Notes: generated from the letters alone by a model not told the origin. A DNA stretch of 11,484 nucleotides from a virus (IMGVR_UViG_2778261514_000009); one strand, 5' to 3'. Counted from the first letter of the stretch, positions 1,772 through 10,877 are shown. Program-made: numbers and translations.

Positions 1772-2040
1772 TCACGCTGGCGGCACGCAGCCGCCACACA
1801 TCAATCATCTGAACACAGAGCTATAACCATGAAGATTGAATATACGCCAGAACGTAGGCGGGGATTCGTTCGCCCTGGTGAAACTGAAAAACAACAAAAT
1901 TGGGGTTTTTCAGGCATAACAAAAAGCGCCCAGTTACCTGAGCGCCTTTGTGAACGATTAACCTGCTGCGAAAAAATTGGATCAGTGCAGGGGAATTATA
2001 TCAACTGTGTGAAGAAGCGCCACTATTGCCGGATAACAGG

Positions 2041-2069
2041 CAAAGAAAAGGCCACCAGTCACGGTGGCC
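2041..2069 (-). terminator. Rho-independent terminator for the minus-strand two-gene unit
   Basis: On the minus strand: GGCCACC-gtgact-GGTGGCC followed by TTTTCTTTG, about 80 bp past the stop at 2149. Confidence 0.45.
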
Positions 2070-2148
2070 CTGCGACACAAATTTCGCGTTATCCCCAACG
2101 CATGAGCATCGCCAACAATGCCACATTTGCGGCTGGTGGGCAATGCTA

Positions 2149-2322
2149 TCAGTCTGGTTCAGTTCGTTGCCATACCTGCAATGAGCGCTTTTCCCTGTAC
2201 TCTTTAAGGAATTGCTCAAGGGCAAAAGCACATGGCGCGAATCTTTCTGATTCATGCTCTATCTTTCTGCGCCGTCTTTTCCGTGCCGGTGATAATGTTT
2301 TGGTCAATTCTTTATCGGTCAT
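2149..2322 (-). CDS. Small highly basic hypothetical protein (57 aa from ATG at 2322; alternative start 2337)
   Basis: ORF track 2149..2337(-); internal ATG has AGGA 8 nt upstream; contains RKRRRRK basic tract; lies 57 bp downstream of the RHH gene and upstream of the terminator. Confidence 0.35.
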   Translation of the reverse strand: MTDKELTKTLSPARKRRRRKIEHESERFAPCAFALEQFLKEYREKRSLQVWQRTEPD

Positions 2323-2379
2323 TGTGTTGTCCTGCATAGCAATGCGCCGTAATACCTCACACCACGGCGCTGATAGTGA

Positions 2380-2559
2380 TTATTCTGATTCTTTGGCCTT
2401 GCGGCGCTGGCGGCGTTTGATCTCGCCTTCAAGTGCCGAAACGATAAATTGCCCTGTACTTTCGCCATCTTCCTTTAAATTTTCTACAGCATCAGCTATT
2501 GCGTGTGGTACTCGAGCCTCAAGCTTTTTGGATTTTGCATTAACTGCTTTTGTTGCCAT
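2380..2559 (-). CDS. Ribbon-helix-helix (CopG/Arc-like) DNA-binding protein, 59 aa
   Basis: Internal ATG of track ORF 2380..2700(-) with SD GAGGAAA 6 nt upstream; sequence KKLEARVPHAIADAVENLKEDGESTGQFIVSALEGEIKRR fits the strand-helix-helix pattern; faces a divergent promoter/operator region. Confidence 0.5.
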   Translation of the reverse strand: MATKAVNAKSKKLEARVPHAIADAVENLKEDGESTGQFIVSALEGEIKRRQRRKAKESE

Positions 2560-2580
2560 ATCTGATTTCCTCGTTATTAG

Positions 2581-2662
2581 GTGGCTGACAGTATACACAC
2601 AAGAAAACGGAAAAACACTATTGACGTGGCTGACACCCGTTACTAATATAGTGGCTGACACC
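2581..2662. promoter_or_regulatory. Divergent promoter/operator region: sigma70-like TTGACG-17-TAATAT (2621-2649, + direction) overlapped by three direct repeats of GTGGCTGACA
   Basis: Repeats at 2581-2590, 2626-2635 and 2651-2660; the second overlaps the -35/spacer and the third sits at the predicted start site; located between the minus-strand RHH gene and the plus-strand operon. Confidence 0.45.
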
Positions 2663-2753
2663 TTTGTCAAGGTAATCGATGAAAAGACAAAGCCCCGCAA
2701 GTGTCGTTACCACTCGCAGGGCTTCTAACCAACAACGTAAACTAGGAGCCGTT

Positions 2754-6675: not shown

Positions 6676-6948
6676 ATGGTACATGACCGCATAGCGGAGG
6701 AACTCGAGGCAAAAGGCTTTTACCGGAGGGCGGCGGCACGATGGGGTGAAGTCATGCAACTGGTGGAGACAGACAAGGAACGGCATCACATCACGATGCG
6801 ACGGCTGGAATGTTCAAGGAAGGCACAGAGGGCACCGGAGCCGCCGGATAATTTCGGAGACCTGAAAAAGGCAGTCGATCGCACTTATGCCGAAATGGGT
6901 ATAGATGGTGCTGGTGATGAAATATGGCGCAATTACCAGGACAGCTAA
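6676..6948 (+). CDS. PerC-family transcriptional activator-like protein (90 aa)
   Basis: N-terminal block MVHDRIAEELEAKGFYRRAAARWGEVM resembles the PerC/Pch family signature as I recall it; SD GAGGGGG 5 nt upstream of ATG 6676; the track's longer 6556 start overlaps ssb out of frame. Confidence 0.55.
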   Translation: MVHDRIAEELEAKGFYRRAAARWGEVMQLVETDKERHHITMRRLECSRKAQRAPEPPDNFGDLKKAVDRTYAEMGIDGAGDEIWRNYQDS

Positions 6949-7550: not shown

Positions 7551-7757
7551 ATGGCTGAAGAGAAAAAAGGCGGTGTTTCGGTGTACATAAGCCCCGAAAT
7601 CGTGGAGGTGCTCAAGCAGCGCCACAAAAAAAACTATGAAGCTGGCGTTGCGGCTGGACTGGATCCGCTGATGACGCCGGAGCCGTCGATAGGTTCACTT
7701 GTGCGATCTTATTTACTTGCGGCGCTTGGGATGCACAAAAATTATGGGGGCGAATAA
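7551..7757 (+). CDS. Hypothetical small protein (68 aa) coupled to the major capsid gene
   Basis: ATG 7551 with GAGGAA upstream (the track's 7518 start lacks an SD); its stop overlaps the capsid gene start (TAATG). Confidence 0.5.
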   Translation: MAEEKKGGVSVYISPEIVEVLKQRHKKNYEAGVAAGLDPLMTPEPSIGSLVRSYLLAALGMHKNYGGE

Positions 7758-8812
7758 TGGCAGTCAAAGCAATAGCACTTAACACACACCAGCTTTTCGC
7801 GTACCTGAATCGCGAGGATATTGCGGAATTTAAATTTAGTCCGCTGTTTACCGCGCTGTTTTTCCCGAACGTGGCGACATTCAACACGCAGGACATCATG
7901 TTAGATAACCTGGATATTGAAGAAGTCACTATGTCGGCGTTTTGTTCGCCTATGGTTGGCAGCCAGGTTCAGCGCGATAAAGGGTACGAAACCAGCATTA
8001 TCCGCCCTGGCTACATGAAGCCAAAACACGAAATCGATCCATTAAAAACAATAATGCGCATGGCTGGAGAAGATCCGGCACAGCTTAACGATCCTACCTA
8101 CCGCCGTATGCGCCTGATTACTGGCAACATGCGCCGCCAGATAAATGCCATTAAGGCACGCGTTGAATGGCTGGCGGTGAATGCGGTAACGACCGGAAAA
8201 AACATCATTGAGGGCGAAGGCATAGAACGCTATGAAATCGACTGGAAGATACCGGAAAAAAACATCATAGAGCAGGCCGACGGTAAAAAATGGTCTGAGC
8301 AGGATAAAGACATACACGACCCAATATATGACATTGAACTATACGCAGATCAGGCAGGTTGCCCCGCCAACGTCATGATTATGGGCGTTGATGTATGGCG
8401 CATGTTACGCAGCTTTAAAAAATTCCGTGAACTGTACGATCTCTCCCGTGGTTCAGAATCCGCCGCAGAGCTGGCATGTAAAAACCTGGGCGAAGTGGTG
8501 AGCTTTAAAGGCTATCTTGGTGATCTGGCCCTTATCGTCTATTCCGGCAAATACACTGACAGCGACGGCACAGAAAAATATTTCCTTGAGCCTGATTTGC
8601 TTGTCCTGGGCAACACCAACAATAAAGGGCTGGTGGCCTATGGTGCGATTATGGATCAGGACGCAGTAAGAACGGGGGCAACGCAAAACATGTACTACCC
8701 GAAAAACTGGATTGAGGACGGAGATCCGGCGATTGAGTACGTGCAGACGCACAGCGCACCGCAGCCGGTTCCGGCAGATATTCGCAAATTTGTTACTGTC
8801 AAAATTGCTTAA
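7757..8812 (+). CDS. Major capsid protein, lambda gpE family (351 aa)
   Basis: Alignable along its length with lambda gpE as recalled: FKFSPLF, PGYMKPKHEIDP, EDPAQLNDPTYRRMR, WSEQDKDIHDP..DIELYA, VSFKGYLGDLALIVYSGKY, LVLGNTNNKGLVAYGAIMD, YYPKNWIEDGDPAIEY..HSAP. Confidence 0.9.
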   Translation: MAVKAIALNTHQLFAYLNREDIAEFKFSPLFTALFFPNVATFNTQDIMLDNLDIEEVTMSAFCSPMVGSQVQRDKGYETSIIRPGYMKPKHEIDPLKTIMRMAGEDPAQLNDPTYRRMRLITGNMRRQINAIKARVEWLAVNAVTTGKNIIEGEGIERYEIDWKIPEKNIIEQADGKKWSEQDKDIHDPIYDIELYADQAGCPANVMIMGVDVWRMLRSFKKFRELYDLSRGSESAAELACKNLGEVVSFKGYLGDLALIVYSGKYTDSDGTEKYFLEPDLLVLGNTNNKGLVAYGAIMDQDAVRTGATQNMYYPKNWIEDGDPAIEYVQTHSAPQPVPADIRKFVTVKIA

Positions 8813-8823
8813 CGGGGGATTCT

Positions 8824-9159
8824 ATGGACACTCCATACATTGAGTTATTTGCAGGCAGTCAGCAGGTCGCCACGACGCTGGTACATTTTGCCGCTGATGC
8901 TGGCGTTATTCAGGAATTTACCCCGCTGATGCTGGCGGACAATGGCGAGTTTAAGCCGTGGGATGGTCAGGAATCTGGCAAGGCTGTTTATCTGACTTCG
9001 TATCCTGTGGACACGTCAAAGCAGAAATCAGCACAGTGTTACAAGACGGGGATATTCAATATTGCCGCCGTTAACTGGCCTGAGAGCGTCGACACCGATG
9101 CGAAAAAATGCGCCGCCTTTGCGGGTTCCGGCGTATCCGTTCAGCCGCTGGCCCGATAA
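8824..9159 (+). CDS. Head decoration protein, lambda gpD-like (111 aa)
   Basis: Core matches lambda gpD as recalled (TPLMLADNGEFKPWDG vs TPLMLDTSSRKLVAWDG; CYKTGIFNIAAVNWPE vs FYKSGTFRYEDVLWPE; KKCAAFAGSGVSV vs KKRTAFAGTAISIV); SD GGGGG. Confidence 0.75.
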   Translation: MDTPYIELFAGSQQVATTLVHFAADAGVIQEFTPLMLADNGEFKPWDGQESGKAVYLTSYPVDTSKQKSAQCYKTGIFNIAAVNWPESVDTDAKKCAAFAGSGVSVQPLAR

Positions 9160-9171
9160 GCAGGGGGAACG

Positions 9172-9585
9172 ATGGCAACGAATGAAAGCATCATGACGCT
9201 ACCGCTGGCGAGTAAATTTAAAGCCGAAGCGCGGGCAATGGCTGACAGAGGTTTATCAACCTATGAGGCCGTATATCAACTAAACAAACTGGAAGAGCAG
9301 GACAAGCCGCGCGCTGATGCGATTATGGCGCTTCATGAGCATAAAGACTATCAGCCGCTGTTACGTGCAATGGCAAACGTGCCATGTATTAGCGTCGATA
9401 ATGCTCGTGAAATCCTGAACATGACCATAGAGCAGGAGCGCCCAAAGGTTGCACCAGAGCTTACCGCAGCCTTTGAAAACTTTATGGACATGCACAGCCC
9501 GCAAGCCGTATCAGCTGGCATGGCATACGATGGCAGAAACCAGGGCGATGACGGCGACATCGATCGCATACTGAAAACCATCTGA
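9172..9585 (+). CDS. Hypothetical protein (137 aa), last gene of the capsid operon
   Basis: SD AGGGGGAA 4 nt upstream; followed by a terminator; no family recognised. Confidence 0.5.
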   Translation: MATNESIMTLPLASKFKAEARAMADRGLSTYEAVYQLNKLEEQDKPRADAIMALHEHKDYQPLLRAMANVPCISVDNAREILNMTIEQERPKVAPELTAAFENFMDMHSPQAVSAGMAYDGRNQGDDGDIDRILKTI

Positions 9586-9589
9586 GACA

Positions 9590-9614
9590 AGGCCGGAGAA
9601 ATCCGGCTTTTTTT
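9590..9614 (+). terminator. Rho-independent terminator (GCCGGA-gaaa-TCCGGC plus T7) abutting cosQ
   Basis: Read directly; same hairpin family as the terminators at 6955 and 7319. Confidence 0.6.
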
Positions 9615-9790
9615 ACGGGTCCTTTCCGGCATATGGACCCGTTACGGGGCGGCGACCTCGCGGTTTTTCGCTATTTATGAGCCTTTTCAGGGGGGGGGTG
9701 GTGGTTTTGTTGTTTGCTCTATCTTTATGAATGAAAAGGGAAAGATGCAAACAATACACCAACCTGAAGCAGTAATTAAGTTGGTGTATT
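9615..9790 (+). other. Lambda-type cos site (copy A): cosQ-like ACGGGTCCTTTCCGG, cosN with 12-nt cohesive end GGGCGGCGACCT (9647-9658), then a divergent cosB-like region
   Basis: ACGGGTCCTTTCCGG-N11-GTTACGGGGCGGCGACCTCGCGGTTTTTCGCTATTTATGA matches the phage lambda cos junction as recalled, with the same cosQ-cosN spacing; downstream sequence departs from lambda cosB and carries a G9 run and the inverted repeat ATACACCAAC...GTTGGTGTAT. Confidence 0.7.
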
Positions 9791-9791
9791 A

Positions 9792-10334
9792 ATGAAATCG
9801 CACCTGATGAACAAAAAAAACATGGCGAAAAGCTGCCGTGTAAGTGCGACAGCGTTCGACAAGTGGGGAGTGACTCCCGTTGAACGTAAAGGCCGTGAGG
9901 CGTTTTACGATGTTGCCAGCGTGATAGACAATAGGGTTAACAATGCAATTAGCCAGCTTACAAACGACAAAGGCGATATTGATGATGATGAACTCTTACG
10001 AGTCAGGATCAGATTACTGACAGCACAGGCGGAGGCGCAGGAACTTAAAAACGAGCGCGATCGCGGTGACGTGATTGATACTGAGTTTTGCCTGTACGCG
10101 CTTTCAAAGCTGGCGAGTCAGATTTCATCAATCATGGACAGCCTCCCGCTTACTATGCAAAGGAGCTTCCCACAGATTACCCACGCCATGCTGGATAGGC
10201 TTAAAAGGGAAGTGGTTAAAGCCTGTAATGCCAGTGCCAGAGTTGCCGACAACCTCCCACAGATACTGGCTGATTACTTGAAAGAAACAACCGGAAACGT
10301 ACCGGAAAAGTTGCTACAGAAGAAAGGCGAGTAA
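9792..10334 (+). CDS. terS: Terminase small subunit, lambda Nu1 family (180 aa; start possibly at 9807)
   Basis: C-terminal two-thirds aligns with lambda Nu1 as recalled (RLLTAQAEAQELKNERD / LTRAQADAQELKNARD; FCLYALSKLASQISSIMDSLPL / FCTFVLSRIAGEIASILDGLPL; LKREVVKACN / LKRDIIKAMN); N-terminus NKKN... parallels Nu1 MEVNKKQ... HTH region; lies directly downstream of cos as in lambda. Confidence 0.8.
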   Translation: MKSHLMNKKNMAKSCRVSATAFDKWGVTPVERKGREAFYDVASVIDNRVNNAISQLTNDKGDIDDDELLRVRIRLLTAQAEAQELKNERDRGDVIDTEFCLYALSKLASQISSIMDSLPLTMQRSFPQITHAMLDRLKREVVKACNASARVADNLPQILADYLKETTGNVPEKLLQKKGE

Positions 10335-10339
10335 CAGAC

Positions 10340-10556
10340 GCGCAATTATTGAACAAAACTGAGAAACGACATGAAAGCGTCATAAATCGCCATTTTAGAT
10401 GATTACCGTGTCGTTTCTTTTTATTGTGTATCTATTTAAAAACAAATAGTTATGTTCGAGAAGTACCGACATGCTTTTTCCAGAAAAATTTTCATAAACA
10501 GATAAAAACCGCGAGGTCGCCGCCCCGTAACGGGCCATAATTCCAGGAAGGACCCG
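10340..10556 (-). other. Second, inverted cos module (copy B): cosQ-like, cosN (GGGCGGCGACCT on minus strand at 10514-10525) and a lambda-like cosB with I1-like and R-like elements
   Basis: Reverse complement of 10500-10556 reads CGGGTCCTTCCTGGAATTATGGCCCGTTACGGGGCGGCGACCTCGCGGTTTTTATCTGTTTATGAAAATTTTTCTGG, close to copy A and to the lambda left end; further along, CGAACATAACTATTTGTTTTTAAATA resembles the lambda I1 region; inverted CGTTTCT elements at 10363-10372 and 10409-10418. Confidence 0.6.
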
Positions 10557-10589
10557 ACGACACCAGACTATCAGAGCGATGGGGGCACA

Positions 10590-10877
10590 ATGACAGAAGC
10601 CGAACTACTGGGATTAATCCGCCGCGTTACCGGAATCAGCCAGCAGCATGACGAACAGGCCACGCAGCCGGACAGCGTGACCGCCGAAAATTACGCGCGT
10701 GTGGTTGCTGAGGTGATGCGCCGTGATGGTATCCAGCTTAATGATGTGGATATGCGCAACATAGGATCCGCGTTCTTGAAATGCTGGCCTACAATCGCCG
10801 CGTGGCACTGTATCGGGAAACGGAGAAAATTACGTACCACTGGAAGAAGCCGGAGCGGTTACGGCGTTAACGAGTAG
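10590..10877 (+). CDS. Hypothetical protein (95 aa), weakly supported
   Basis: ORF with a G-rich SD-like sequence upstream; no family recognised; could be non-coding. Confidence 0.3.
   Translation: MTEAELLGLIRRVTGISQQHDEQATQPDSVTAENYARVVAEVMRRDGIQLNDVDMRNIGSAFLKCWPTIAAWHCIGKRRKLRTTGRSRSGYGVNE

Follow-up and report, generated by a model that had tools for sequence, protein, structure and literature searches.

A remote homologue of the lambda scaffolding protein Nu3 in the capsid gene cassette of an EcCICFT073-type phage-inducible chromosomal island

In phage lambda, translation from a start codon inside gene C yields the scaffolding ("capsid assembly") protein Nu3, which therefore has the same sequence as the C-terminal portion of the gpC protease. 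The interaction partners reported for Nu3 are E, B, C, and Nu3 itself (PMC3224144). SaPI1 encodes CpmB, a small helical satellite protein that is at least partly related to the scaffold of its helper and plausibly acts by binding the inner surface of the coat (PMC6893505); it works on the helper coat and gives rise to small capsids. SaPIbov5 Ccm and PmCI172 represent satellites that carry a homologue of the helper coat protein (PMC6893505), come without a recognized scaffold homologue, and redirect capsid size or shape. In Escherichia coli, the cf-PICIs (e.g., EcCIEDL933) are phage-inducible chromosomal islands (PICIs) that are built on an int/alpA/rep backbone and supply capsid proteins of their own (bioRxiv 10.1101/2022.09.08.507074), with a full set of coat, protease, portal, connectors, HNH, TerS, and TerL. 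EcCICFT073, the prototype of the Gram-negative PICIs, contains a coat gene (c1499) and a decoration gene (c1500), which are followed by c1501 and cos1. The supplementary tables of the published work identify c1501 as a 137-aa protein without a listed function (PMC6092414).

The window analyzed here, i.e., the whole stretch of 11,484 nucleotides from IMGVR_UViG_2778261514_000009, is a PICI of the EcCICFT073 type. It is identical to an island of ~11.4 kb that is inserted in tqsA of E. coli STEC17-183, and it contains genes for an integrase, an HTH regulator, an Icd-like protein, a primase, SSB, and a PerC-family protein together with capsid genes, cos, and terS. The integrase, the regulator, the replication module, the size of ~11 kb, the lambda-type cos, and the split host gene tqsA all correspond to the EcCICFT073 type; moreover, the island is syntenic with EcCICFT073, and cos1 and cos2 are both present. 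The two islands differ beyond cos, where EcCICFT073 carries rppA (c1503), whereas the window carries a Nu1-like small terminase gene (terS; positions 9792 to 10334, plus strand; Pfam Phage_Nu1, 1e-23; 35% identity to lambda Nu1). Across loci, this slot was found to be swappable, being occupied by a Nu1-like TerS, by RppA, or by neither, with the same capsid cassette 5′ of it. No portal, protease, large terminase, or connector genes were found in the window. In contrast to the cf-PICIs with their full set, whose int/alpA/rep backbone it shares, the island has only a coat protein, a decoration protein, a Nu3-like protein (see below), and TerS, and it would need the portal, protease, TerL, and connectors of a helper.

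Several further features of the island were recorded. A second, inverted lambda-type cosN lies on the minus strand at positions 10514 to 10525 (surroundings at ~10381 to 10590), between terS and the next open reading frame (ORF). Compared to cos1, this site has a flank with a longer stretch of similarity to lambda cosB, and it is the counterpart in the cos1/cos2 pair described for EcCICFT073. A 95-aa ORF at positions 10590 to 10877 (plus strand; PHROG 1561, function unknown) is flagged by RefSeq as frameshifted in the identical island, and its homologues in other islands comprise 93 to 94 aa. The 299-aa ORF at positions 1829 to 2728 (plus strand), which RefSeq lists as a hypothetical protein, has an unusual translation rich in Cys, Arg, and Ser and is possibly not a true gene; antisense to it, on the opposite strand (positions 2380 to 2700), lies an ORF of 106 aa. 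The PerC-family transcriptional activator (positions 6676 to 6948, plus strand) and the Icd-like cell-division inhibitor (L001 5355 to 5555) are possible host-affecting accessory or regulatory genes. Adjoining EcCICFT073 in its own host, a lambdoid prophage at positions 1424900 to 1436000 of CFT073 encodes a gpC-type protease with three Nu3 repeats; judged by order, it is probably helper prophage 4.

The capsid genes of the island form a conserved cassette of four genes just 5′ of cos. The first is a 68-aa ORF (positions 7551 to 7757, plus strand; PHROG 3255, function unknown; annotated as a CDS in RefSeq), whose stop codon overlaps the start of the gpE-like major capsid (coat) gene (positions 7757 to 8812, plus strand; Pfam Phage_cap_E, 1e-49). 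The gpD-like head decoration gene starts 11 nt past the coat gene (positions 8824 to 9159, plus strand; Pfam HDPD, 1e-17; PHROG 49; 44% identity to the gpD-like protein of the prophage). The gene under study (positions 9172 to 9585, plus strand) follows, with an ATG start located 12 nt past the TAA of the decoration gene and a Shine-Dalgarno sequence, AGGGGGA, at positions 9162 to 9168 on the same strand. It encodes a 137-aa, acidic, predicted all-helical Nu3-family homologue, the orthologue of c1501 (WP_000224596.1), which has the same length and is 93% identical. An intrinsic terminator-like hairpin with a U-run (positions ~9589 to 9614, plus strand; ΔG of −15.3 kcal/mol, z = −2.6) closes the capsid gene string, and a published c1501 clone ended at the same hairpin sequence (PMC6739421). 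The hairpin is followed by cos1, a lambda-like cosQ/cosN region that was identified by alignment with lambda cos (positions 9612 to 9691, plus strand). The exact position of cosN, i.e., of the 12-nt cohesive-end sequence GGGCGGCGACCT, was located at 9647 to 9658, so that cosN begins 61 nt past the stop codon of the 137-aa gene. The original prediction, which described the gene as the last one of the capsid operon immediately before cos, was thus correct on this point: the gene is the final one in a tightly packed string of capsid genes, and c1501 occupies the same position in EcCICFT073.

We compared 81 related loci, of which 80 are on IMG/VR contigs and one is on a Logan contig. The 137-aa gene followed the coat and decoration genes at a fixed spacing in all 81 of them, while the replication and packaging genes varied. 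The 68-aa ORF adjoins the coat gene in 79 loci, and the other two loci end inside the coat gene. Two alleles of the 68-aa ORF occur (~100% or ~69% identical), while the coat protein is at least 89% identical across the 80 IMG/VR loci; by eye only, the 68-aa protein has the look of a ribbon-helix-helix protein. The reading frame of the 137-aa gene is unbroken in 80 loci, for which dN/dS values of 0.28 (137-aa gene), 0.14 (coat gene), and 0.11 (decoration gene) were obtained; within the 137-aa gene, the parts that encode the two protein ends gave the lowest values (0.15 and 0.20). Among 5,426 complete E. coli genomes, 596 (11%) carry the gene, with up to five copies per genome, and at least 80% of its length is covered in 591 of these 596 matches. 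RefSeq likewise annotates it as a CDS. These data confirm that the predicted 137-aa ORF is a genuine, conserved, and intact gene rather than a chance reading frame. The family is narrow, since an exhaustive search of 1.84 billion cluster representatives yielded, apart from a few Nu3-like phage proteins, no more than two clusters of full length (P0001 and P0040). No relatives were present in a scan of genome contigs with one genome per species.

The original prediction also stated that the protein belongs to no recognizable family. This holds for Pfam, NCBIfam, PADLOC, and PDB sequence searches, all of which were empty, but not for phage protein profiles. The protein matches PHROG 1999 (function unknown) with an E value of 4e-65, and residues 46 to 119 match the C-terminal end (positions 495 to 567 of 583) of the profile of PHROG 53, "head maturation protease" (E = 1.7e-10). 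The sole tblastn match in phages was the 3′ end of an S49 protease ORF that directly precedes gpD-/gpE-like genes. In a BLASTP comparison with all lambda and CFT073 prophage head proteins, the only significant match was the S49 peptidase of the CFT073 lambdoid prophage (residues 416 to 493 of 501; E = 3e-11; 39% identity). The region encoding the homologous segment directly precedes the gpD-/gpE-like genes in phage 204576 as well as in the CFT073 prophage. BLASTP of the 137-aa protein directly against lambda Nu3 gave no match, and the link to Nu3 therefore required intermediate sequences and profiles. One such intermediate is P0041, a stand-alone Nu3-like protein of 195 aa from the search of cluster representatives, which matches residues 5 to 116 of the 137-aa protein (BLASTP, E = 6e-11) as well as lambda Nu3 (E = 2e-16). 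For an independent test, we built a hidden Markov model (HMM) from homologues that had been gathered with lambda Nu3 as the sole seed and then aligned; this model scored the 137-aa protein with 19.3 bits, compared to a maximum of 7.4 bits for 2000 shuffled sequences. Finally, hhalign (run with -M first) aligned residues 42 to 120 with residues 117 to 190 of Nu3 (E = 1.6e-4; probability of 50%).

Taken together, these comparisons show that the protein is a remote yet significant homologue of the lambda Nu3 scaffolding region, with a similarity that lies below the detection level of Pfam and NCBIfam. We therefore describe it as a stand-alone, shortened, satellite-borne member of the Nu3 family of scaffolding proteins. 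Among the roles that the original prediction had proposed on the basis of gene position, that of a scaffold gains support from this homology to the Nu3 region at the C terminus of lambdoid gpC-type proteases. We found no paper that ties c1501 or PICIs to Nu3. A group of 135- to 137-aa proteins found with lambda Nu3 had been considered as a second class of satellite scaffolds and was rejected: P0145, the one examined, turned out to be a piece of gpC, encoded where the contig of an ordinary lambda-like phage ends.

A different identity is implied by NCBI, where many homologues bear the name "phage head-tail connector protein." A head-tail connector, a head completion protein (as also suggested by the original prediction), or a gpFI-like packaging chaperone would agree with the location next to the capsid genes and cos and, in the latter case, with the similar length (137 aa versus 132 aa for gpFI). 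However, the connector families of Pfam, NCBIfam, and PHROG were unmatched, and BLASTP against the W, FII, and FI proteins of lambda and the prophage gave no significant match (lambda gpFI, E = 0.42 over 13 aa; prophage FI, unmatched), the only significant similarity being that to the Nu3/gpC tail. We consider such a role to be highly improbable.

The features shared with lambda Nu3 and the gpC C terminus are a helical repeat of the type IMxxL..EA.G....A..LA..PG.TVE.AR.IL and a subsequent block of the type LxxxM..(H)(S/A)P.A..AG. Both proteins are also acidic (pI of 4.9 for the 137-aa protein and 4.5 for Nu3), helical or poorly ordered, and encoded beside gpD-/gpE-type genes. In contrast to Nu3, the satellite protein is encoded by a stand-alone gene that is not nested in a protease gene, and no S49 protease was found anywhere in the window. 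Since stand-alone Nu3-like ORFs such as P0041 are known, nesting is a matter of genome organization and not of protein family. Further differences are the gene order (E-D-Nu3-like versus C/Nu3-D-E in lambda), the missing counterpart of the N-terminal ~110 aa of Nu3, the N-terminal LPLASKF and C-terminal DIDRILKTI sequences that are specific to the satellite protein, and an identity to phage homologues of at most 39%.

The 137-aa protein contains two helical repeat units of ~43 aa, compared to one unit in lambda Nu3 and three in the CFT073 prophage protein. Unit 1 (residues 5 to 44; positions 9184 to 9303, plus strand) is a degenerate copy of the Nu3 repeat (IMxxL..EA.GRE..A..LA..PGMTVE.AR.IL), aligns with the second repeat of P0041, and opens with an invariant IMxLPLASKF sequence. 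Unit 2 (residues 48 to 88; positions 9313 to 9435, plus strand) shows the best conservation with respect to the repeat of lambda Nu3 (residues ~117 to 160 of Nu3). The internal repeat score was 35, compared to a mean of 19.2 (standard deviation, 3.8) for shuffled sequences, and was reached by 8 of 5000 shuffles. Natural in-frame deletion variants of 93 aa (P0025, P0029, and P0031) have lost exactly one 44-aa unit between two RAMA motifs; a version with one repeat is apparently tolerated. The repeats are followed by the FENFMDMHSPQAVSAG motif (residues 100 to 116; positions 9469 to 9519, plus strand), which is of the FxxFMxxHSPxAVxAG type and common to gpC-type proteases (ALFEHFMANHSPAAVxGG). 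Its counterpart in lambda Nu3, LDRLMQGAPAPLAAG, shows a weaker likeness than the gpC-type proteases do.

The protein ends with an acidic linker and a C-terminal tail helix, GDDGDIDRILKTI (residues 125 to 137; positions 9544 to 9582, plus strand), that is near-invariant across the family. Even P0040, which is only 41% identical, retains both the N-terminal IMxLPLASKF and the C-terminal IDRILKTI sequences, and the adjoining coat protein is 84% identical. In a positional alignment, the tail helix corresponds to DAVNDLLNTPV of lambda and DADVKMLMAMP of the prophage; the extreme C terminus differs between the satellite and phage proteins. Because of this difference, a coat-binding role of the tail can only be inferred.

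Structure prediction and a Foldseek search had been proposed along with the original prediction as a means to check it. AlphaFold2 models from two alignments were all-helical and of low confidence (pLDDT of 58.8 and 58.9), the C-terminal tail helix included, which is what one expects of a scaffold. A Foldseek search of the models against BFVD and PDB gave no match with an E value below 1; the informative evidence came from sequence profiles instead.

The three proteins encoded downstream of the 68-aa ORF are similarly distant from their phage counterparts. The coat protein is 44% identical to lambda gpE and 46% identical to the CFT073 prophage coat protein, and the identities of the decoration and Nu3-like proteins amount to 44% and 39%, respectively. 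Among 50,697 phage records, no relatives of the coat protein with more than 48% identity were found. The roughly equal distance of all three proteins from phages, along with this lack of a closer phage coat, leads us to conclude that the coat, decoration, and Nu3-like genes constitute an old, co-inherited, and satellite-specific shell kit. The island shares with SaPIbov5 Ccm and PmCI172 the possession of a coat homologue; in contrast to these satellites, its coat gene is accompanied by that of a scaffold homologue, and the data for the sister island EcCICFT073 revealed no change in size.

These published data bear directly on the possibility, raised by the original prediction, that the protein redirects capsid size. 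As an alternative scaffold in the manner of SaPI1 CpmB, it could compete with the helper Nu3/gpC for the helper coat, or act together with the island coat, to produce small heads. Such a role would follow the same logic as that of CpmB and 80alpha gp46 (reviewed in PMC6893505), given that the protein is a satellite-encoded relative of a helper scaffold, and would suit an island of ~11.4 kb, about a quarter of lambda. Like CpmB, the protein is small, helical, and satellite-borne, and it may likewise bind to the inner surface of a coat. However, there is no sequence similarity between the two proteins (the PDB sequence search was empty at E ≤ 10, and Foldseek against PDB gave no significant match), and the island has a coat gene of its own. 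When EcCICFT073 with intact c1499-c1501 was mobilized by lambda, all packaged DNA was phage-sized, and with the natural helper (prophage 4) a PICI monomer band was absent (PMC6092414). We rejected the notion that "c1501::tetA" denotes a gene disruption, which would have voided the phage-sized-capsid result: the primer sequences place tetA directly past the c1501 stop codon, and c1501 was thus intact in these experiments. Four island copies amount to ~45 kb, which fits a lambda-sized head, and the extreme C-terminal tail is unlike those of phages, which argues against competition for the same site on the coat protein. The size data do not extend to TerS-type islands like the present one, which were not mobilized and for which no helper was found (PMC6092414). 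With c1501 being 93% identical, the data for EcCICFT073 do not support size redirection, and judged by the published evidence for this sister island, shells would not differ in size from helper heads when lambda is the helper. We regard this role as doubtful.

Alternatively, the protein could be a decoy, i.e., a protease-less copy of the gpC/Nu3 tail that binds the portal, protease, or coat of the helper and poisons head assembly to the benefit of the host or the satellite. In favor of this role, its homology is to the gpC/Nu3 segment by which the prohead initiator is engaged, with Nu3-B, Nu3-C, and Nu3-E interactions being described (PMC3224144), and interference genes are typical of PICIs in the same region (PMC6739421). 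However, pBAD18-c1501 (pJP2216) was among the single-gene clones tested for interference, and lambda plaquing was reduced by c1503 (RppA) only; deletion of c1503 restored lambda growth (PMC6739421). Interference is thus, like size redirection, not supported for EcCICFT073. A PADLOC match is also absent, and a constructive role is a better fit for a gene so strictly linked to that of a full-length coat protein, which is itself under strong purifying selection. A decoy function seems doubtful to us, too. We also rejected an identity with the Rpp proteins (wHTH; RppA/RppC): RppA is encoded by a separate gene beyond cos in CFT073, and the PDB sequence search, in a collection expected to include the published RppC structures, returned nothing.

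Deletion of c1499 (coat) or c1500 (decoration) in EcCICFT073 changed neither the island transfer by the natural helper nor the interference with lambda (PMC6092414), and the cassette is therefore dispensable for mobilization under the tested conditions. These unaltered phenotypes raise the possibility that the cassette is selected for something other than mobilization by the tested helpers, e.g., for use with other helper types, as a back-up shell when the helper coat is limiting or targeted by host defenses, or for a non-packaging role. Purifying selection on all three genes and the presence of the 137-aa gene in 11% of the complete E. coli genomes agree with this possibility; on the other hand, it argues from missing phenotypes in two helper systems, and it is compatible with scaffold biochemistry for the 137-aa protein. 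We consider it rather unlikely.

The role that we favor for the protein, with a probability of about one in two, is that of a cognate internal scaffold or assembly chaperone of Nu3-family identity for the satellite's own coat. While the homology to Nu3 emerges from the sequence comparisons themselves, we infer every step of the following mechanism. Through its conserved ends, most probably the C-terminal DIDRILKTI helix, the protein would attach to the island coat protein on its inner face. In the manner of Nu3 with gpE and gpB, it would then promote polymerization of the coat into a procapsid shell on the portal of the helper, and the repeat region that it shares with Nu3 may tie this assembly to the portal/protease initiator of the helper. 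Subsequently, the protein would exit or be degraded by the gpC-type protease of the helper. The portal and protease of the helper are invoked here because the island encodes neither.

More tentatively, EcCICFT073-type PICIs could be regarded as "shell-forming" satellites that build their own shell, consisting of coat, decoration protein, and Nu3-like scaffold, on a stolen helper portal and rely on the helper protease and terminase for processing and filling. We think that this reading is unlikely. It would place these islands between the classical PICIs, which use all-helper capsids, and the cf-PICIs with complete heads of their own, and the 137-aa protein would act as an adaptor that couples the satellite coat to the portal/protease initiator of the helper. 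Assembly might then need particular helpers, and the shells might differ in size or stability.

The gene c1501 and its satellite family have been described before, and the Nu3 annotation is new. Knockouts in the cassette are without a phenotype, and the scaffold function is put forward as a proposal based on homology. Since 2018, the capsid-like genes of the commonest E. coli PICIs have been without an assigned role, with c1501 as a blank box on the maps, and the widespread database name "head-tail connector" would be corrected by the annotation proposed here. As a natural minimal variant of Nu3, with two repeats and a tail (and a single repeat in the deletion variants), the protein could serve for studying lambda-type scaffolds. 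Recognition of a Nu3-type protein would turn what might be taken for stray phage fragments into a coherent, co-inherited shell kit of coat, decoration protein, and scaffold. The retention of capsid genes by PICIs thereby becomes a testable matter of whether shells assemble, on whose portal, and with which helpers.
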